Below, piece after piece: positions 40,664 through 50,601 of a DNA stretch of 64,000 nucleotides. The stretch is from Bacteroidota bacterium (GTDB lineage Bacteria > Bacteroidota > Bacteroidia > Bacteroidales > Dysgonomonadaceae). The position numbers were made by a program, and so were the translations under genes. Location of the stretch: contig JBDLTH010000080.1 of NCBI GenBank assembly GCA_039799165.1, positions 6,000 through 69,999 on the forward strand, given 5' to 3'. Each line of letters starts with the position of its first letter. The first letter of the stretch is position 1. The notes beneath the pieces were generated by a model. It searched no databases. It saw only the letters and a program-made list of their open reading frames with translations, and was not told the origin of the DNA.

Positions 40664-43129
40664 TTAATCAAAATCGACAACCGTGATGCCAGCTCCGCCA
40701 AACTGCACATGCTCGTCTTGGTAGTTACTCACCCCATTTACCGTACGCAGGTAGTCTCTAATTACCTGACGCAACGCACCCGTACCTGTGCCATGCAGGA
40801 TGCGTACCCGTGATACGCTTACTTGTATAGCATCGTCAATAAAGTACATCACGGCTTGCAAAGCCTCGTCGGCACGCATGCCACGCACGTCTATTTCTTG
40901 TTTAAAGTTTAGCTTTTTGTCATAAATCTGATCGCTGGTTTGGCTACTTACAAAGGTGCTTTTGGCGGTTTCTCGTTTCACCTGATTTTTGCTCACCTTA
41001 TCAAGGGTATCGAGCTTTACGGTCGATTTTATCATGCCAAAGGCTACAATGGCATTTTTGCCTTGCATACCCATCAGCTCGCCTACGGATGTTTGCCCTT
41101 TCATACGCACATAATCGCCTACTTGCAGTGCTTCCGTTTTTTGCTCTTTGGGGGCTTTTACCTTGTTTTGTTTCTGTTGCTCCTTCTCTTTAAGCTTTTG
41201 TATTTTGCGGGCTATTTTGTCGTCTCCCAAATGCTCCACAGCATCCAGATTGGCTTTGAATTGGCTTAACGCTTGGCGAGCTTCTTTGGTTTTTTCTTTG
41301 TCGGCTTGAGCCTCTTTGATGGTGCGTATCGTATTCTCTATTTTAGCATTCGCATCTGCCAACAGGCGTTGTGCCTCTTCTTTGGCTTGGCGAATCAGCT
41401 CTTTGCGTTGCTTTTCTACCTCGGTGAGGTCGGTTTCGTATTTCTCGGTAACCTCTTCTAGCTTCTTTTCTTTCTGACGGATGTTTTGACGTTTACTTTC
41501 CCAATAACGCTTGTCTCGCACAATGTCTTGCAGGTACTTATCCATGTTGATGTAGTCGCTTCCGACCAGTTCCGAGGCATCGTTTATTACATCTTCGGGC
41601 AAACCTATTTTGCGGGCTATTTCGATAGCAAACGAACTGCCTGGATTGCCTATGGATAGGGCAAACAGGGGTTGCATGATGTGGCGGTCATAGAGCATGG
41701 CACCGTTTACCACGCCCTTGTGTTCGTTGGCAAAGTGTTTGAGATTCTGATAGTGGGTAGTGATAACGCCAAATGCCTCGCGCTCGTTGAAGCGTTTGAG
41801 TAGCGATTCGGCAATAGCTCCGCCTATCTGTGGCTCGGTACCCCCTCCAAATTCGTCAATCAACAAAATCGTTTTGTGATCGCAATTGCGTACAAAGTAT
41901 TTCATGTTGGTAAGGTGCGAGCTGTACGTACTGAGGTCGTTTTCTATCGATTGCTCGTCGCCTATATCGATAAATATATGATCGAAGATTCCCACTTTCG
42001 AGCTTTCGGCTACGGGGATGGGCAGTCCGCATTGCACCATGTATTGCAATAGCCCTACTGTTTTGAGGCATACTGATTTACCACCTGCATTGGGTCCTGA
42101 TATGATGAGCAGGCGGGTATCGGCTTCGAGCCAAATATCGAGGGGTACTACGGTCTTGTTTTGTTTCTTGTGCGACAGGTACAGCAGGGGATGGGTAGCC
42201 CTGTTCCAGCTGATAAGTTGTGCATCAGTCATTGTAGGGCGTATGGCGTTGATGTCGAGCGAAAAGCGTGCTTTGGCTCGAATAAAATCGATCCACCCCA
42301 AAAAGTCGTACGATTGTAGGATATCGGGGGCTAAGGGGCGTACATTGTCGGTAAAGGCAATCAGTATTTTAACTATTTCTCTACGTTCTTCGCTCTCCAG
42401 TTCTCGCACACGGTTGTTGGCTTCTACTACTTCGGCAGGTTCGATAAATACGGTCTTGCCCGATGCCGACTCGTCATGCACAATACCTTTGAGTTTGCGT
42501 TTAAAGGCAGGTGCTACGGGTATTACCAGTCGCCCATCGCGCATGGTGGGGGCAACGTCTTTTTCGACTAGCCCTTCGGCTTGTGCCGATCTGAGGATGG
42601 CACTTAGGCTTTTGGATATGCTGCTGGATACCTGTGCCATCTCGCGACGTATGTGGCTTAGGTTACTGGAGGCATTGTCTTTGATGCGTCCATACTTGTC
42701 CAATATGGCATCTATTTGGTTGAGCAATTGTGGAAACACCACAACGTCGCCTGCTAGTGCTTGCAAATGAGGGTAGGGGGTGTTGTCTTCGTCTTCTTTT
42801 TTCAGAAAGCTGACAATCTCCCGAATGGTCTGGAGCGAGCGACGCAGGTCAAACACGGCTGGTTCGTCTAACCATGTGCCTTCTACCCTGATGTTTTTGA
42901 GTGCGGGGCGTACATCAAAAAAATGATTGACCGGAAATTCGTCTTCTTCTTGTATGATGCGTATAAACTCGTCTGTTTGCGAAAGTAATTTTTCGATGGA
43001 TGCGTAGGCATTCAGAAAAGCCATTTCGTGGGTTTTCTCTTCGCCCAATGTGCTTAGGCATTTGTCTACAATGAGGTTACGCACTTTGTCGAACCCTATC
43101 TTAACTTCGAAATTATCGGGATATATCAC
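40664..43129 (-). CDS. mutS2: MutS2 endonuclease with Smr domain
   Basis: ISGPNAGGKS, DIGDEQSIENDLSTYSSH, LIDEFGGGTEP, TTHY, Smr ILHGTGTGALR. Confidence 0.95.
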   Translation of the reverse strand: MIYPDNFEVKIGFDKVRNLIVDKCLSTLGEEKTHEMAFLNAYASIEKLLSQTDEFIRIIQEEDEFPVNHFFDVRPALKNIRVEGTWLDEPAVFDLRRSLQTIREIVSFLKKEDEDNTPYPHLQALAGDVVVFPQLLNQIDAILDKYGRIKDNASSNLSHIRREMAQVSSSISKSLSAILRSAQAEGLVEKDVAPTMRDGRLVIPVAPAFKRKLKGIVHDESASGKTVFIEPAEVVEANNRVRELESEERREIVKILIAFTDNVRPLAPDILQSYDFLGWIDFIRAKARFSLDINAIRPTMTDAQLISWNRATHPLLYLSHKKQNKTVVPLDIWLEADTRLLIISGPNAGGKSVCLKTVGLLQYMVQCGLPIPVAESSKVGIFDHIFIDIGDEQSIENDLSTYSSHLTNMKYFVRNCDHKTILLIDEFGGGTEPQIGGAIAESLLKRFNEREAFGVITTHYQNLKHFANEHKGVVNGAMLYDRHIMQPLFALSIGNPGSSFAIEIARKIGLPEDVINDASELVGSDYINMDKYLQDIVRDKRYWESKRQNIRQKEKKLEEVTEKYETDLTEVEKQRKELIRQAKEEAQRLLADANAKIENTIRTIKEAQADKEKTKEARQALSQFKANLDAVEHLGDDKIARKIQKLKEKEQQKQNKVKAPKEQKTEALQVGDYVRMKGQTSVGELMGMQGKNAIVAFGMIKSTVKLDTLDKVSKNQVKRETAKSTFVSSQTSDQIYDKKLNFKQEIDVRGMRADEALQAVMYFIDDAIQVSVSRVRILHGTGTGALRQVIRDYLRTVNGVSNYQDEHVQFGGAGITVVDFD

Positions 43130-43232: not shown

Positions 43233-43892
43233 TTATTTCTTTGTTAAGGGTATTTTGAGAATTGCATTTATCAGCAATCCAGCATGCTGGTTAGGTATCC
43301 ATTCTTGATAATTTGGGGGTTGGTGCTTCACGATATCAGGTCTAAAGTTAAGAGTTGAATAGCCAACAGAACCTACAATAGTCCATTTCGGTGTTTTGTA
43401 TTCTACACCTGCCCCTATATTGTAGGTAAGGCTTGTTTCGGCGAAACTCTTTTTGTCATGTCCTTTATACGTAAAGCGACCCGTCATTACTCCCACTGCA
43501 ATTTCGTTTTCGAGAAACAAAGATAGGCTTTCGTCTACATGAAAATGAAATTTAGGTACAACACCAACCTGTGGGTGAAACAGGCTGTACTTTAGGCTTG
43601 CTGTACTTGGGTTTTTAGGTGGAATTGGTATGCCATTTTTATCTGCGGTTGCATTTGTTTCATCACTGAAAGTATAAAGCCCATATCGGGTTCTCAACTC
43701 TAGACTAAAGAAGTGATTGCGATGTGGCATATATTCTAAGCCCATAATGAATCCTCCTCCCCGAACGTCTTGGTCAAGCCCTGTTCCATTGTAATAGATG
43801 CCTGGCATGAGTGAGAGTTTTGATTGTGCTTGCACCAGTTGTGAAACGAGTGCAAAAATAAAGATAAAACTTATAGATAGTATAACTTTCAT
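43233..43892 (-). CDS. Putative outer-membrane beta-barrel protein
   Basis: SPI signal peptide (AQ cleavage), alternating beta-strand pattern, YNIGAGVEY; 4 nt downstream of peptide 3 stop. Confidence 0.6.
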   Translation of the reverse strand: MKVILSISFIFIFALVSQLVQAQSKLSLMPGIYYNGTGLDQDVRGGGFIMGLEYMPHRNHFFSLELRTRYGLYTFSDETNATADKNGIPIPPKNPSTASLKYSLFHPQVGVVPKFHFHVDESLSLFLENEIAVGVMTGRFTYKGHDKKSFAETSLTYNIGAGVEYKTPKWTIVGSVGYSTLNFRPDIVKHQPPNYQEWIPNQHAGLLINAILKIPLTKK

Positions 43893-43896
43893 ATAC

Positions 43897-44082
43897 TTAG
43901 CTCATGATACTGCATAAGGTGAGATTAGCTATAATGAGTAGTGTGCCTGCCAATAATATTTTTAGTGCTTTAGACTGATATTGTTCTTTTTTTTCCATTA
44001 TAATACATACAATCAGCAGAACACTTCCGCCTATAATTAATGCTATACCGCAGAGTAGCAATCCCCAAATTAGTGTAATCAT
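43897..44082 (-). CDS. Small two-helix membrane peptide 3 (61 aa, ends TLCSIMS)
   Basis: Paralog of 44382-44597: ALKILLAGTLL...TLC. Confidence 0.75.
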   Translation of the reverse strand: MITLIWGLLLCGIALIIGGSVLLIVCIIMEKKEQYQSKALKILLAGTLLIIANLTLCSIMS

Positions 44083-44154
44083 GAGCGTATTTCTTGTTTT
44101 TCAGTAAATGTTTATTTTAAAAGAAAGCTTCTTAATAAATGAAGGATAGCCCAT

Positions 44155-44343
44155 TTATAAAGCAAGCAAATAAGCGAATACACAAATAAATATACCGCAT
44201 CCGATTAGCTTTATAGAATTGAGCGTATGCTTTCGTTTATCTTCTTTTATGAGAGAAACGATCAATATCATTATTCCTACCATGCTAGTCAGTACTCCTA
44301 TTACGAATATAATCAAGAGGACTAAGAATAAAATATATTCCAT
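44155..44343 (-). CDS. Small two-helix membrane peptide 2 (62 aa)
   Basis: Same helix-charged loop-helix layout (KEDKRK..LNSIKLI); ATG 44343 preferred over TTG 44349. Confidence 0.7.
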   Translation of the reverse strand: MEYILFLVLLIIFVIGVLTSMVGIMILIVSLIKEDKRKHTLNSIKLIGCGIFICVFAYLLAL

Positions 44344-44381
44344 TATCAATATTGTCTTTTGCGTATTAAAACGGAGTTTAC

Positions 44382-44597
44382 TTAGTGCATGGGACCTAAG
44401 CTAAAGGTCATGGTGCAAAGCGTAAAACCACCTATGCCTAGCAATGTACCCAGTAGTATGACTTTTAGTGCGTTTATGGCACGTTTTTTTTTATCATCTA
44501 CAAATACTACACTAATTAGCATGATGATGCCAACAACAAGAAGTAGTATGGCTATACCTAGTATAAAGAACGATAAAATGTTTAAAGACTCTTTCAT
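44382..44597 (-). CDS. Small two-helix membrane peptide 1 (71 aa, ends TLCTMTFSLGPMH)
   Basis: 30 nt downstream of rSAM stop; DDKKKR loop, ALKVILLGTLL...TLC. Confidence 0.75.
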   Translation of the reverse strand: MKESLNILSFFILGIAILLLVVGIIMLISVVFVDDKKKRAINALKVILLGTLLGIGGFTLCTMTFSLGPMH

Positions 44598-44627
44598 AAT
44601 AATAGCAAATGAGTGGATTACGGATTT

Positions 44628-45989
44628 TTATATATCAGATTGGTTTCGATACAACAGATTCATGGTTTCGAAAGGGATAATTCGCCCATCGTCATGTACA
44701 ATATGCACGCACGATTTTTTGATGGCTCGCACATCAAAGTTGTGTGCATCCATAAATTGCATAATAATTACCCGAAACAGGTTGTCGTATTCCAGCCCAG
44801 GTGCATACACTTCGGGTAGGCAACATAGCAGTTGGGTTACGTTTTCCGAAGCCTTGTCTACCGATATACCTGTACTGAAAAGCTTTATCATCTGGTCTTG
44901 CAGATCGGCATCTTGCTCGTATACAATGGTGTTTTTAGAAGCCGTATTCAACAGGGCTTTCGGGTCTATGTATCGGGTTAGGGGTATTACCTGTCCGTTC
45001 AGTTTTAGGGCATAGCCCATAGCCAGCGCATCGGGGTTGCAAGGTACGGGTACAATGTCGTTGGCTTCGAACAGCTTGCTCTGAGCGAGTATGTTGTTAC
45101 GCACCTCGGTAAGGGTTAGCCGATGATTGACCGAGTGGGGGTGGTTGCGTCCAGCTATTTGTATTGGCTGAAAGGTTACACCACGCACGCATCGTTGTTT
45201 TACGGCAAAGTCAAGTATACTGCCTATTTCATCGTCATTTAGCCCCTGTTGCAAGGTAACTACAAGCGTGGTGCTTAGGTTGAGTTCGTTGAGGGTTTCC
45301 AACGCTTTGTATTTAAGCGAAAGCAAATCGGCTCCTCGCAATTCTTTAATTACTTCGGGGCGAAACGAATCGAATTGCAGGTACACCTCAAAGTCGGGCA
45401 TGTAGCTTGCCAGTCGAGTTGCAAATGCACGGTCTTGTGCAATGCGAATACCGTTGGTGTTTAGCATCAAATGCTTGATGGGTTTTTTCTTGGCAATGTC
45501 TAATATTTCGAAAAAATGGGGGTGTATAGTGGGTTCGCCACCACTTATTTGCACAACATCGGGTTCGCCCTCGCTAGCTACTATAATGTCTAGCATGCGT
45601 TCTATTTCTGCTACACTTTTGTGTTTGCCTTGAGCCGACGATGCGGCATAGCAGGTGGGGCAATTGAGGTTGCACTGATCGGTAATTTCTACAATGCAAA
45701 GGCAACTGTGTTGCTCATGATCGGTACACAGACCACAATCATAGGGGCATCCTTTTTCTACGGGCATCGCAAACTTGAGTGGCATATCCGAAGCCTTGTT
45801 GTAGTTGCGTATATTTTTGTAATAGTCTACATCCGTAGCCAGCAATGTTTTACTAAACCCATGTTGTGGGCAAGCTTTGGTCATAAACACGTTGTTGCCC
45901 TCAATCACTATCTTGGCATCGATACGTTGCAGGCACTCGGCACAAAGGCTCGTTGTGTAGTCGTAATATACATAATCTCTTACAGGCAT
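44628..45989 (-). CDS. Radical SAM enzyme, Tes/GDGT-MAS (MJ0619)-like family
   Basis: N-terminal TTSLCAEC...CPQHG, auxiliary GCPYDCGLC..HEQHSC, core CNLNCPTC, SGGEPT, LNTNG, YLQFD, RGVTFQP, C-terminal SCVH...DGRIIPF. Confidence 0.85.
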   Translation of the reverse strand: MPVRDYVYYDYTTSLCAECLQRIDAKIVIEGNNVFMTKACPQHGFSKTLLATDVDYYKNIRNYNKASDMPLKFAMPVEKGCPYDCGLCTDHEQHSCLCIVEITDQCNLNCPTCYAASSAQGKHKSVAEIERMLDIIVASEGEPDVVQISGGEPTIHPHFFEILDIAKKKPIKHLMLNTNGIRIAQDRAFATRLASYMPDFEVYLQFDSFRPEVIKELRGADLLSLKYKALETLNELNLSTTLVVTLQQGLNDDEIGSILDFAVKQRCVRGVTFQPIQIAGRNHPHSVNHRLTLTEVRNNILAQSKLFEANDIVPVPCNPDALAMGYALKLNGQVIPLTRYIDPKALLNTASKNTIVYEQDADLQDQMIKLFSTGISVDKASENVTQLLCCLPEVYAPGLEYDNLFRVIIMQFMDAHNFDVRAIKKSCVHIVHDDGRIIPFETMNLLYRNQSDI

Positions 45990-46003
45990 ATTAATGATGT
46001 GTT

Positions 46004-46789
46004 TTAGGTGGTTTGTTTACTCGTTGATGGATGGCTTGCAAGCAGCCGTTTGGGCTGCACGATATAGGGTGCATAATAAAATATGGTGAGCAGGCTAGCA
46101 AGTTGAATACTGCCCAACCCAAACGCATAGCGCCATCCGGGCTTGATGAAGTCGAGGGCAAAGCGAAATACAAAATAGGCGATCATAAACAGCTTGAATA
46201 GTCCTCCCGATTGCAGGGTATATGTTTTTTGTACCTGCTTGAGAATAATCCAAATGCCGATGAGGTAAACAATCTCGTACAAGGCTACGGGGTGGCGCAT
46301 GATGTTGTCGCCCAAGTTCATTGCCCACGGCAATGACGAGGGCAGTCCATACGTTTCTTCGTACACACCTGCACTAAAACAGCCAATGCGTCCGATAATT
46401 ATTCCTAGCAAAAGTGGGTATACATATATGTCGCCAGTGCTTTGCTTTTCGCCTACTATTTTTTTGAATAGTTCTACGCCTATCAATCCACCTATTAGCC
46501 CGCCAGCCAATGTTTTGTTGAACCAGAAGTACAGTAGCTTGTTTGACGATGCCATCCATTGCGGTATGTTTTCGGCAGCACCCAACAAGTGCGATCCTAC
46601 AATAGCCCCACTGGTTGCACCTATTAGTGCTACTAGCCGATTGATGTCTTCGACCGAGTCGCCTTGTTTTTTGCGTAACATGAGGTAATACCTAAAAGCT
46701 ATACATGTAGCCATCAGCTCTAGTAAGCTATGCCACAAGATAGTTGTGCCAGCTATTTGTATGCCCATCGGAAAGTTAAAATCGATCAT
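46004..46789 (-). CDS. Prolipoprotein diacylglyceryl transferase-like protein (divergent Lgt)
   Basis: GGLIGG, GRIGCF, YG.P..LPW, HPVALYE, FRF.LDF motifs; multi-TM; ATG 46789 preferred. Confidence 0.85.
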   Translation of the reverse strand: MIDFNFPMGIQIAGTTILWHSLLELMATCIAFRYYLMLRKKQGDSVEDINRLVALIGATSGAIVGSHLLGAAENIPQWMASSNKLLYFWFNKTLAGGLIGGLIGVELFKKIVGEKQSTGDIYVYPLLLGIIIGRIGCFSAGVYEETYGLPSSLPWAMNLGDNIMRHPVALYEIVYLIGIWIILKQVQKTYTLQSGGLFKLFMIAYFVFRFALDFIKPGWRYAFGLGSIQLASLLTIFYYAPYIVQPKRLLASHPSTSKQTT

Positions 46790-47002
46790 TCTTATCGATA
46801 TAAGGTTGATTTTTGTTGTTTCTTTATCTAAAACAGTGTGCAATAGTACGTTTTTTAACTGAAAGTAGCAAGTAAAGGATAATATTGTGAGATTAAATTA
46901 TTAAAAGATCATCAATCATAAATATGATAGGAATGTATAATTTACCTTATTTTTATTACTTGATTTAAAAGCTTACTTTTGTGCTAAATTTTAAAAAAGA
47001 AG

Positions 47003-47803
47003 ATGAAAAAAATAAATGTATTCGTAGTTCTTGTAGCAGTAGCTTTGGGCTTTGCTGCTTGTAACAACAAAAAAGCGACACCAACCGACGAGGTGAATGC
47101 AACAACATCAGTATCAGCAAAAAAAATATTATTTGTATTATCTAGCCACGACAGCTTGGGCAATACAGGTAACAAAACAGGTTACTATCTGTCAGAAGTA
47201 GCACACCCATGGGAAGTACTAAAAAATGCAGGATACGAAATAGATTTTGTAAGCCCCAAAGGTGGTAATCCTCCCGTAGATGGTTTTGACTTGAAAGACT
47301 CTATCAACCATGTGTTTTGGACAGATAGCATCTACCAGCTTAAATTACAAAATACAATGAAGCCTGCTGATGTAAACCCCGAAGCCTATGCCGCTATTCA
47401 TTATGCTGGTGGGCATGGTACCATGTGGGATTTTGCCGACAATACAGAGTTGGCAAGCATTGCTACCCAAATTTATGAAAAAGGAGGTGTAGTAAGTGCC
47501 GTATGTCATGGACCAGCTGGTTTGGTAAACATCAAACTATCAGATGGTAGCTATTTGGTAGCAGGTAAAAAAATAAATGGCTTTACGAACGAAGAAGAGG
47601 TGGCTGTGAAACTTGAAAAAGTAGTGCCTTTTATGCTAGAAACTAAGCTTATTGAGCGTGGTGCTATCTTCGAAAAAACAGAGATGTGGCAAGCTCATGT
47701 AGTGGTAGATCAGCGTGTGGTAACGGGTCAAAACCCACAATCGGCAACCAAAGTAGGAGAGGCTATATTGAGCGAATTGACAAAAATAAATACGAAACAA
47801 TAA
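47003..47803 (+). CDS. DJ-1/PfpI (Hsp31-like) family protein, lipoprotein
   Basis: YLSEVAHPW, AGGHGTMWD, AVCHGP, VTGQNPQS; lipobox FAAC. Confidence 0.9.
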   Translation: MKKINVFVVLVAVALGFAACNNKKATPTDEVNATTSVSAKKILFVLSSHDSLGNTGNKTGYYLSEVAHPWEVLKNAGYEIDFVSPKGGNPPVDGFDLKDSINHVFWTDSIYQLKLQNTMKPADVNPEAYAAIHYAGGHGTMWDFADNTELASIATQIYEKGGVVSAVCHGPAGLVNIKLSDGSYLVAGKKINGFTNEEEVAVKLEKVVPFMLETKLIERGAIFEKTEMWQAHVVVDQRVVTGQNPQSATKVGEAILSELTKINTKQ

Positions 47804-48024: not shown

Positions 48025-48879
48025 ATGAGATTAGACGGAAGAAGGACGAGCGACAATGTTGACGATCGGCGCGGAAAAGGGGGCGTAGGAAAGGCATCGC
48101 TAGGTATTGGCGGAACTATTCTTGTGGGACTCATTGTATGGTTGATGGGCGGCAACCCCATGGAGGTGCTTCAGCAACAGGCATCACAAAACATAGGTGT
48201 GCAAGGTAGTTATACCCCAACAGCCGAGGAGGAACAGGCTGCAACTTTTGCCAAAACTATTTTGGCAGGTACAGAGGATGTTTGGAAAGAAGTATTTGCC
48301 CAAAATGGGATGAAGTACGTTGCCCCTCGTATGGTGCTGTTTAGTGGAGGCACACAATCGGGGTGTGGTAACGCCTCATCAGCCACAGGTCCATTCTACT
48401 GTTCGGCAGATCAGACGGTATATATCGACCTCTCGTTTTTCAATCAGATGAAGACGCAACTTAATGCAGGAGGCGACTTTGCCTACGCTTATGTTATAGC
48501 ACACGAGGTAGGGCATCACGTACAATACCTTTTGGGTACCTTAAACAAGGTGCATACACAGCAGCAACGCCTAAGCGAAAAAGAAAGCAACCAGCTTAAT
48601 GTCAGACTAGAGTTGCAAGCCGATTATTATGCAGGTATTTGGGCATATCACGATAACAAAAACTTTAACTCGATAGAGGATGGCGATATAGATGAGGGTC
48701 TGAATGCGGCAACACAGATAGGCGACGACCGCCTGCAAATGCAATCGCAAGGATATACTGTACCTGATGCTTTCAACCATGGTACATCGGCTCAACGCAG
48801 TCGTTGGCTCAAAAAAGGCTTGCAAAGCGGACAATTATCCGGTGGCGATACGTTTTCTATCGCCTACTCGGCATTGTAA
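48025..48879 (+). CDS. Neutral zinc metallopeptidase (YpfJ-like)
   Basis: R.S.NVDDRRG, GPFYCSAD, AHEVGHHVQ, LELQADYYAG, HGTSAQR. Confidence 0.92.
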   Translation: MRLDGRRTSDNVDDRRGKGGVGKASLGIGGTILVGLIVWLMGGNPMEVLQQQASQNIGVQGSYTPTAEEEQAATFAKTILAGTEDVWKEVFAQNGMKYVAPRMVLFSGGTQSGCGNASSATGPFYCSADQTVYIDLSFFNQMKTQLNAGGDFAYAYVIAHEVGHHVQYLLGTLNKVHTQQQRLSEKESNQLNVRLELQADYYAGIWAYHDNKNFNSIEDGDIDEGLNAATQIGDDRLQMQSQGYTVPDAFNHGTSAQRSRWLKKGLQSGQLSGGDTFSIAYSAL

Positions 48880-49498: not shown

Positions 49499-50518
49499 TC
49501 AAAAAGTTCTGCCCGATTTATTTTGAATTGGAGCATGTTGGCTTATTTGTTTTAGTATATGTTGCAGTACATTTACCGAAACACTATTACCAAACTGTTT
49601 GTATGCCTGACTGGTAGATGTATCTAGCCTAAATGTGTCTGGAAAGCCTTGCAATCTGGCACACTCTCTAGGGCTTAGTTTGCGTATATGCCCGTCTATC
49701 AAGTAAAGTCCTGTTTTAGCACCCACGCCTCCACCATAAGCCGACAGCGTAATAGCATGCCCCAGCGGATGGTAGATGCGTTCGCCCTGCCCGCCTTTGT
49801 TTACCTTGCCTATTTGGATGGGCTTATTTAACAATTGCATCTTGCCAAAGAGGGTGTTCTGGGGCGTATATTCTTTATAAATATCAATATCAAGCCGTTC
49901 AATCACTTTAGCTTCCGAAGGGTTTGGTTCGATAATATCGAGTAAGCAAGTAGGCAATGCACTCGGTTTTGGAAATTCAAATATTTTAACATTTAATGTT
50001 TTACGAAATCCTACGATGTAGATACGCTCTCTGTTTTGAGGCAGTCCAAAACAACTGGTATTTAACACTTGGTGGTAGATGTCATAGCCCAGCGTATCGA
50101 GCGTATTGGCAATTACTGCCAGCGTTTTGCCCCCATCATGTTTTGCCAGATTTTTCACATTTTCCAAAAGCAAGACTTTAGGTTGATGTTGCCTGACGAT
50201 GCGTGCAATATCAAAAAAAAGTGTGCCTCGGGTATCGTCAAAACCCCGTTGCTTGCCCGATACCGAAAACGCTTGACACGGAAATCCACCACACAATATA
50301 TCGTGTGCAGGTATCCTATGTTCTTCTATTTGGGTAATATCGCCCTGTGGAGCTAGACCAAAATTGTTGAGATAAGTGGCTGCCGCATGCTTGTCCCATT
50401 CGGATGCAAACACGCACTTTGCACCAAACGAATCGAGTGCGAGGTGAAAGCCTCCGATACCAGCAAATAGGTCTACAAAGGTGTACGTTGACAAACTTGG
50501 CGTATCTATTTCAATCAT
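49499..50518 (-). CDS. C5-cytosine DNA methyltransferase, M.HhaI-like, no adjacent endonuclease
   Basis: DLFAGIGG, GFPCQAFS, ENVKN, QNRERIY, TRD GGQGERIY...AITLSAYGGG, QAYKQFGNSV; ATG 50518 gives MIEI as in M.HhaI. Confidence 0.95.
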   Translation of the reverse strand: MIEIDTPSLSTYTFVDLFAGIGGFHLALDSFGAKCVFASEWDKHAAATYLNNFGLAPQGDITQIEEHRIPAHDILCGGFPCQAFSVSGKQRGFDDTRGTLFFDIARIVRQHQPKVLLLENVKNLAKHDGGKTLAVIANTLDTLGYDIYHQVLNTSCFGLPQNRERIYIVGFRKTLNVKIFEFPKPSALPTCLLDIIEPNPSEAKVIERLDIDIYKEYTPQNTLFGKMQLLNKPIQIGKVNKGGQGERIYHPLGHAITLSAYGGGVGAKTGLYLIDGHIRKLSPRECARLQGFPDTFRLDTSTSQAYKQFGNSVSVNVLQHILKQISQHAPIQNKSGRTF

Positions 50519-50601
50519 GCTTACAAATTTAGGCAATCTTTTTCTGATAATGCCCGTTTACTGGGTTTATCAGAATTGCAGTTCGCTTCTAGCCCAATCC
50601 A

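Follow-up and report, generated by a model that had tools for sequence, protein, structure and literature searches.

A conserved module of an Lgt paralog, a Tes-like radical SAM enzyme and small cysteine-bearing membrane proteins, predicted in Bacteroidota and other phyla

The archaeal radical S-adenosylmethionine (SAM) enzyme Tes, or GDGT-MAS (M. jannaschii MJ0619; PDB 7TOL/7TOM), couples phytanyl ends, and its bacterial homologs have been counted as possible genes for the palaeothermometer lipids known as brGDGTs (glycerol dialkyl glycerol tetraethers of the branched type), without experimental support (PMC8941075, PMC11868695). Mss of Thermotoga, from a separate radical SAM family, has been proposed to join fatty-acid tails in bacteria (Sci Adv 2022, PMC13159169), and a class of diacylglycerol-bearing peptides made on the ribosome and modified after translation (DAG-RiPPs) uses N-terminal signal peptides, canonical lipoboxes, the housekeeping Lgt, LspA and Lnt, and MNIO enzymes (PMC13056109). 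Here we analyse a run of six minus-strand genes in a 64,000-nt stretch of contig JBDLTH010000080.1 (the window) from a Bacteroidia genome of 2.8 Mb in 185 contigs; five of these genes encode a divergent Lgt paralog, a Tes-like radical SAM enzyme and three small membrane proteins (p1, p2 and p3) with a cysteine close to the C-terminus (Table 1). Because they are linked, co-occur and are in part fused, the Lgt paralog, the radical SAM enzyme and the small proteins clearly work together as a predicted functional unit, which probably marks a new way of joining a protein to membrane lipid. A literature search found no paper on a module of Lgt, a Tes-like radical SAM enzyme and a cysteine mini-protein.

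The association of these genes was followed through Bacteroidota. Species-representative genomes were scanned for the radical SAM enzyme, with 279 relatives as the yield; we compared the best 80 loci, all from Bacteroidota and with enzymes 65-73% identical to that of the window. Of the 80, 73 have the Lgt paralog as the next gene upstream, in the same orientation and most commonly with an 8-nt overlap with the radical SAM gene, and the 7 unlinked genomes, when searched, all proved to encode a strong ortholog of the paralog elsewhere (E 1e-45 to 1e-89). A pseudogenised Lgt at the unlinked loci was rejected as an explanation, since tblastn found nothing there and the intact gene sits elsewhere in the genome. 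The position after the radical SAM gene is occupied at nearly every locus by one to three open reading frames (ORFs) of 60-113 aa with 2-3 membrane helices, frequently in 4-nt overlap, so that the copy number of the small proteins varies from 1 to 3. A small ORF bearing the cysteine motif described below was found 3' of the radical SAM gene in 66 of the 75 loci with enough downstream sequence, compared to 3 of 82 control ORFs, which were small membrane ORFs within the same loci. Of 401 Bacteroidota genomes sampled evenly, 29 (21 of 179 genera) had the radical SAM gene, accompanied in all 29 by the Lgt paralog and adjacent to it in 27; a match to the Lgt paralog, and a weaker one, turned up in 1 of the 372 genomes lacking the radical SAM gene. 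The consistent linkage to Lgt and small peptides that a preliminary description of this DNA had made a test of its proposal is seen here, and adjacency, translational coupling, co-occurrence, fusions and an invariant lipobox-like cysteine together bear out the functional tie that it suggested. The module is patchy in its distribution, being absent from a genome of the same family and from most of the same order, and is present in cultured strains of Chitinophaga, Pedobacter, Aquimarina and Lewinella. In the module neighbourhoods examined we found no conserved protease, exporter or transporter, or immunity gene.

Outside Bacteroidota, the two enzymes can be a single polypeptide. A search of 1.84 billion representative proteins returned 668 relatives of the radical SAM enzyme at E <1e-30, among them fusions of ~700 aa with the domain order LGT, Zn_ribbon_HMPTM, Radical_SAM (for example P0123 and P0269). 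These fusions form more than 50 clusters, including Verrucomicrobiota and Tepidisphaerales (Planctomycetota), and unfused relatives occur in Aquisphaera, Acidobacteriota, Kapabacteria and Opitutaceae. Both fusion genes examined (2 of 2) are followed by a membrane protein of ~120 aa, ending ...LAAGLCFAMAR and ...LAFGLCFAAFHR, respectively. This layout is found in Aquisphaera too (...IAYCSMTGPVNFH), where the locus combines a radical SAM gene with two cysteine-tail proteins, of which one ends in ...CSMTGPVNFH, and with an Lgt paralog that shows the same change, as GR..ACF. A profile link between the small proteins of different phyla was rejected, as the scores of the Verrucomicrobiota and Planctomycetota proteins were not above those of shuffled sequences; layout and motif alone are shared. 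As predicted from these genes, the module is present in at least three phyla. Two further features of these loci stand on their own. In Aquisphaera giovannonii (CP042997, L094:4431-6210), the membrane hairpin of both cysteine-tail proteins is preceded by an N-terminal zinc-ribbon-like segment, CxxC...CxxC, so that the "mini-protein" would have a soluble domain in some lineages. In a Verrucomicrobiota locus (L091:1703-3001), a 432-aa, cysteine-rich, multi-pass membrane protein with no Pfam match on record has a stop codon that overlaps the start of the Lgt-radical SAM fusion gene by one base.

A sister clade within Bacteroidota, which includes a genome of the window's own order (G031, L087:4981-8451; also L088:4986-8588), shows a longer gene order: radical SAM enzyme, a methyltransferase of the isoprenylcysteine carboxyl methyltransferase (ICMT) family (PF04140), a DUF4395 membrane protein, an Lgt paralog and a small cysteine protein with three transmembrane helices, ending ...GGCLLII or ...FGACMVGIGG... 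The radical SAM enzyme of this clade is ~40% identical to that of the window and scores 368 against the TrsS model, below its cut-off of 490. Methyltransferases of the ICMT type act on an S-lipidated C-terminal cysteine, and a lipidated cysteine near the C-terminus would fit the presence of such a gene. The arrangement invites comparison with eukaryotic CaaX processing, in which prenylation is followed by -aaX cleavage and ICMT methylation: the cysteine lies a few residues from the C-terminus in both, the ICMT-family gene of the sister clade is positioned between the genes for the radical SAM enzyme and its Lgt partner, and C-LLII forms the end of a small protein in that clade. However, the module in the window has no ICMT gene, a phospholipid, and not a prenyl diphosphate, would donate its lipid, and no homolog of a CaaX protease was seen, so we treat the likeness as an analogy only.

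The Lgt paralog of the window belongs to the Lgt family (Pfam LGT, 78.1 bits against a cut-off of 24.9) and falls well below the equivalog model of housekeeping Lgt (TIGR00544, 42.7 bits against 118.9). A canonical Lgt sits on another contig of the same genome (221.8 bits, Pfam), which makes the window's gene a second, divergent copy. Its AlphaFold model (pLDDT 93.6) has E. coli Lgt 5AZB as its sole PDB match with E <0.001 (E=1.7e-7, TM 0.62). Compared to E. coli Lgt (PDB 5AZB/5AZC; PF01790; TIGR00544), the paralog shares the Pfam family and fold and keeps the RHP..LYE segment, but has a shorter periplasmic head region. In E. coli numbering, for which the reference sequence agrees with the alignment segments of 5AZB, residues R143, G154, Y235 and R239 are invariant across the paralog family; the two arginines, essential in E. 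coli Lgt, are invariant in 68 family members and correspond to R134 and R209 in the window. N146 is replaced throughout the family by an invariant cysteine (GRIGCF), Y26 by histidine, and H103 is absent, with a non-histidine residue in its place. The presumed acceptor resembles that of E. coli Lgt in being a cysteine past a basic stretch and a hydrophobic helix, and differs in the position of its motif, which closes a hairpin protein at the C-terminal end, and in having T/V/I at -1; the paralog's gene, moreover, is coupled or fused to that of a radical SAM enzyme. Pailler et al. are said to have placed the C-terminus of E. coli Lgt in the cytoplasm in 2012, a topology that would suit a C-terminal fusion to a cytoplasmic Fe-S enzyme.

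The radical SAM enzyme matches Pfam Radical_SAM (84.8 bits), Zn_ribbon_HMPTM (69 bits) and, weakly, Fer4_12, and the Pfam scan found no SPASM or peptide-recognition domain in it. Its best-scoring curated model is NCBIfam TrsS (NF045646, 325.9 bits against a cut-off of 490), and against NCBIfam Tes (NF045702) it scores 278.1 bits, with a cut-off of 450 and only its first ~312 residues aligning; being below both cut-offs, it belongs to neither family. The alignment to TrsS runs end to end (residues 12-447 against model positions 3-433 of 441), and TrsS and the window family therefore have the shorter C-terminal domain in common. TrsS, a radical SAM (seleno)protein, was reportedly described by Haft and Tolstoy in 2025; the window enzyme has no selenocysteine, as its 453-codon frame contains no in-frame stop. 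A selenoprotein reading of the sister-clade genome G031 was rejected, since the flagged "1 TGA" falls outside the called ORF.

In sequence, the window enzyme matches GDGT-MAS 7TOL at E=3.6e-64. Its AlphaFold model (pLDDT 77, low around the cluster-binding loops) aligns over its full length to 7TOM (E=1.6e-34, TM 0.80 over 483 columns), and the next best fold reaches a TM of 0.38. The two enzymes share the zinc-ribbon/rubredoxin-like N-terminus, the CPYDCGLC and CxxxCxxC motifs and the fold. Across 85 family members 15 cysteines are conserved: invariant or nearly so are an N-terminal metal site (C16/C19/C40 with H43), the auxiliary CPYDCGLC site (C81/C85/C88/C96) and the CxxxCxxC radical SAM motif (C106/C110/C113), and five further conserved cysteines follow (C267/C317/C389/C390/C427). 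Unlike in Tes/GDGT-MAS, the C-terminal cysteine ligands are largely swapped for a different conserved set, the host is a bacterium with ester-linked, non-isoprenoid lipids, and the enzyme is always accompanied by an Lgt paralog and cysteine mini-proteins, partners that are to our knowledge not known for archaeal Tes. Mss is set apart from the window enzyme by its published description, and we know of no Lgt or cysteine-protein partners reported for it. The wider family of Tes-like radical SAM proteins occurs in several distinct contexts, with other fusion partners that include an N-terminal MobA-like NTP transferase plus HD and a C-terminal DUF5714 (P0239, P0214).

All three small proteins of the window are two-helix hairpins. 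In phmmer searches against small proteins encoded next to the most closely related radical SAM genes, p1 was matched at E=1e-15, p3 at 8e-8 and p2 at 4e-6, the partner of p2 being a small protein of locus L086 and those of p3 the small proteins of L086 (8e-8) and L083 (1e-6). Since each matches the small proteins of the closest loci, p1, p2 and p3 appear to be paralogs in a real family. We also built a family hidden Markov model (HMM) from 78 small proteins of other loci, with 200 shuffles and the reversed sequence as controls. On this model p1 scored 18.4 bits (shuffle maximum 7.7, reversed 9.1) and p3 a marginal 8.1 bits against the same shuffle maximum; p2, at 2.5 bits, was not above shuffles, so its membership of the family rests on paralogy. 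A subtype with [F/L]-T-L-C-[S/T] is common to p1, p3 and the Flavipsychrobacter loci.

The 78 small proteins share a C-terminal layout in which G-K/R is followed by ~17 hydrophobic residues, then by [V/I]-G-[F/L]-[S/G]-[T/V/I]-Cys and lastly by a 2-16-residue tail. The cysteine is invariant, glycine stands at -4 in 75 of the 78, and the last K/R lies 16-22 residues (median 17) ahead of the cysteine. The loop holds 2.7 K/R and the tail 0.3, a concentration of basic residues from which the positive-inside rule would put the cysteine at the outer face of the membrane, like that of a lipobox. A canonical lipobox, [LVI][ASTVI][GAS]-Cys at the N-terminus, is not what these proteins carry; they have an n-region and an h-region, yet at the C-terminal end of the hairpin, where the predicted segment resembles a lipoprotein signal. 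In the window the lipobox-equivalent segments read FTLC, IFIC and LTLC, and the cysteine codons lie at 44415-44417 (p1), 44182-44184 (p2) and 43912-43914 (p3).

Two observations on these tails stand apart. Among the 78 proteins (L003-L082), 18 end in histidine, often as ...N-F-H, ...N-M-H or ...G-P-[LM]-H, and this second C-terminal signature recurs across phyla, from GPMH in the window's p1 to NFH in an Aquisphaera protein. The "lipo-invert" C-terminal anchoring domain (NF058595) was tried as a match and rejected: one related small protein reached 13.6 bits against a 37-bit cut-off, a genome-wide search gave only sub-threshold noise, none of it at module genes, with similar noise in 14 of 14 control genomes, and no paper using the term was found.

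From the genes, their families, folds, conserved residues, linkage, co-occurrence and fusions, we infer a sequence of chemical steps and a product. The module would have three components: an Lgt-family transferase of its own, a radical SAM enzyme resembling Tes/GDGT-MAS and, as dedicated substrates, one to three small hairpin proteins. The last helix of the small protein would mimic a lipoprotein signal, with a basic cytoplasmic loop, ~17 hydrophobic residues and then G-[F/L]-[S/G]-[T/V/I]-Cys, the cysteine of which would sit at the outer face of the inner membrane. S-lipidation of this cysteine is the most economical suggestion, since the small proteins behave as dedicated substrates and their last helix mimics a lipoprotein signal. 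The Lgt paralog, having retained both arginines by which E. coli Lgt holds the phosphate of the phospholipid, would move a diacylglyceryl-type group from a phospholipid to the cysteine in a thioether bond. Signal peptidase II probably does not cut, as the residue at -1 is beta-branched rather than Gly, Ala or Ser, and the hairpin would then stay attached. The radical SAM enzyme is predicted at the cytoplasmic face, and certain phyla have it joined to the C-terminus of the Lgt paralog, which would likewise lie in the cytoplasm; the enzyme would perform Tes-like radical chemistry on terminal carbons of acyl tails, either of the donor lipid or of the protein-bound lipid; Bacteroidota tails, mostly iso-branched, resemble the phytanyl ends coupled by Tes. 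Tail chemistry seems likelier than peptide crosslinking, given the full-length structural match to GDGT-MAS and the lack of peptide-maturase domains. This would yield a small membrane protein held by a covalent bond to a lipid with joined tails, macrocyclic or membrane-spanning, and the trio of Lgt paralog, radical SAM enzyme and small protein probably forms a physical complex. We favour this combination of cysteine lipidation by the private Lgt and remodelling of lipid tails by the Tes-like enzyme as a tentative reading whose chance of being right falls a little short of even. Its more specific form, in which the coupled enzyme joins the protein-bound tail to a second tail to give a macrocyclic or membrane-spanning anchor, would amount to a new kind of protein lipidation; it is possible and on present signs doubtful.

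Several features weigh against lipidation followed by tail remodelling. The residues N146, H103 and Y26, reported to be essential or important in E. coli Lgt, are all changed in the predicted paralog, and the donor, the acceptor or even the reaction may therefore differ from that of Lgt. The lipobox is non-canonical, with T/V/I/L at -1, F/L at -3 and S/G at -2, the cysteine has been lost in some second-copy small proteins (Chitinophaga), and outside Bacteroidota the small proteins are alike in layout but not in profile score. In the alignment, C427 alone is retained of the C-terminal cluster ligands of GDGT-MAS (SC...CC...FC); other conserved cysteines (C267, C317, C389, C390) could replace those lost, and a third cluster is possible, but would be ligated otherwise than in GDGT-MAS. 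Finally, the Lgt active site is expected to face the outer leaflet and the radical SAM enzyme to be cytoplasmic, so that a shared substrate would require tails that span the bilayer or sequential action of the two enzymes.

Some of these features also count in favour of other explanations. Loss of N146 and H103 would fit a changed acceptor, as in a lipid-only pathway in which the radical SAM enzyme couples acyl tails into membrane-spanning or macrocyclic lipids, the Lgt paralog moves glyceryl or diacylglyceryl groups between lipids, and the small proteins are unmodified structural or regulatory subunits. The full-length GDGT-MAS-like fold and sequence of the enzyme agree with such a pathway, as does the treatment of bacterial Tes homologs as candidate brGDGT genes in published surveys (PMC8941075, PMC11868695). 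We consider it unlikely, given the invariant cysteine held 16-22 residues past the basic loop in a lipobox-like motif beside a private Lgt, the presence of 1-3 copies whose remainder has diverged in the manner of substrates rather than subunits, and the ICMT-family methyltransferase of the sister clade. The replacement of most of the GDGT-MAS C-terminal ligand set, together with the invariant active-site cysteine gained by the Lgt paralog, which hints at thiol chemistry, could instead mean that the cysteine of the small protein is a transient carrier, a catalytic thiol or a ligand standing in for those lost from the radical SAM enzyme, with no stable lipidation. This we regard as rather improbable: positive-inside topology puts the cysteine at the outer face, away from the cytoplasmic enzyme, whose own 15 conserved cysteines are enough for three clusters and the zinc-ribbon site, and several diverged copies per locus would be unusual for a cofactor subunit.

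The preliminary description had framed the locus as a RiPP-like lipopeptide class. On such a reading the peptide would be crosslinked by the radical SAM enzyme and lipidated by the Lgt paralog, and the natural product set free would be a short lipopeptide. Tandem paralogous small genes beside a radical SAM enzyme are what such a class would look like, and the post-cysteine tails are short and variable, with 18 of 78 ending in histidine as noted. DAG-RiPPs (PNAS 2026, PMC13056109) show that RiPPs can carry diacylglycerol, and they share with the window module a small ribosomal peptide with a cysteine-borne diacylglycerol, which the module has as a proposal only; they have neither a private Lgt nor a radical SAM enzyme and rely on housekeeping Lgt and N-terminal signal peptides. 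The present locus is a poor fit to that framing. Each small protein is an intact integral-membrane hairpin that shows no division into leader and core, and what is conserved in it is a membrane helix rather than a leader; no conserved protease, exporter or immunity gene accompanies these proteins, and the radical SAM enzyme, which shows no SPASM or peptide-recognition domain, aligns along its whole length with a lipid enzyme. The hallmarks of a RiPP precursor with a radical SAM maturase (leader and core, SPASM or recognition domain, protease or exporter) are thus absent here, and we hold a RiPP-like product to be quite improbable. That the genes are chance neighbours forming no functional unit is refuted for the five core genes: the two enzyme genes lie side by side in 73 of 80 loci, they occur together in 29 of 29 genomes, and in other phyla they are fused. 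This leaves it a negligible prospect; it is the explanation that holds for the sixth gene, which encodes the putative beta-barrel protein.

The preliminary description had listed this sixth gene among the tightly spaced six; the comparison of loci does not uphold it as part of the system. The assignment of the 219-aa protein as a beta-barrel is plausible but sub-threshold (OMP_b-brl, 24.3 bits against 28.7), and its N-terminus is signal-peptide-like. No homolog of it was found in the 80 related loci, and other genes follow the module in its two closest relatives. Bacteroidales-type genomes account for all 33 of its own homologs, 48-62% identical; three of their contexts were examined, and these proved unrelated, with no Lgt or radical SAM gene. 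On the comparison of loci and these three contexts, the barrel was rejected as a sixth component: it is a local neighbour, and the five other predicted genes are the conserved module, although the barrel gene may be co-transcribed with them.

All six minus-strand ORFs of the preliminary description are present in the ORF listing at the positions and with the spacing it had given, the gaps between them being 14, 30, 32 or 38, 72 and 4 nt (Table 1). A sigma-70 scan returned 14 sites against 12.1 +/- 3.4 in shuffles, and promoter and terminator counts were no higher than in shuffles, in a scan that does not model Bacteroidota promoters and is unsuited to them; on manual reading of the region upstream of the module no clear TAnnTTTG box was found.

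Table 1. Positions in the window of the module genes, the adjoining barrel gene and the upstream intergenic region.
Feature	Coordinates	Strand	Remarks
Lgt paralog, 261 aa	46004..46789	-	ATG start; alternative TTG at 46843; putative module-private, divergent Lgt-family membrane transferase
Radical SAM enzyme, Tes/GDGT-MAS-like, 453 aa, N-terminal zinc ribbon	44628..45989	-	Pfam Radical_SAM and Zn_ribbon_HMPTM
p1, small membrane protein, 71 aa	44382..44597	-	Helix, KKKR loop, helix, GFTL-Cys61, tail TMTFSLGPMH
p2, small membrane protein, 64 aa	44155..44349	-	Divergent paralog; TTG start; 62 aa from ATG at 44343; end GIFI-Cys-VFAYLLAL
p3, small membrane protein, 61 aa	43897..44082	-	End NLTL-Cys57-SIMS
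Putative outer-membrane beta-barrel protein, 219 aa	43233..43892	-	OMP_b-brl sub-threshold; starts 4 nt past p3
Intergenic region between the module and the divergent DJ-1/PfpI-family lipoprotein gene	46790..47002	.	Presumed promoter region

The flanks of the module are ordinary. Downstream lies MutS2 (40664-43129, minus strand, 873 bits) and upstream a YpfJ-type zinc metallopeptidase (48025-48879, plus strand, 362 bits). The divergently transcribed gene at 47003-47803 (plus strand) encodes a DJ-1/PfpI-family protein with a lipoprotein-type N-terminus, which weakly matches HchA/PfpI and the PG1828 lipoprotein signal model. Further away, a 345-aa ORF at 49499-50536 (minus strand) shows DNA cytosine-5 methyltransferase-like motifs (FAGIGGF, ENV, QNRER), read from its translation only.

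A module that occurs in at least three phyla, at times with two of its parts in one polypeptide, has had no described function. The obligate partnership with Lgt and a mini-protein suggests that the brGDGT reading is wrong for this clade, and if a protein-bound tail is what the enzyme joins, many bacterial "Tes homologs" taken as markers of branched tetraethers would belong to a protein-linked system. Should tail coupling be what the radical SAM enzyme does, a large group among the bacterial homologs of Tes would gain its first defined function and setting. The system is compact, comprising three genes and a substrate of ~70 residues. Lipidation of the cysteine, if it takes place, would broaden the rules for lipidating bacterial proteins so as to include a site that is C-terminal and uncleaved, served by a private Lgt with a cysteine in place of Asn146.

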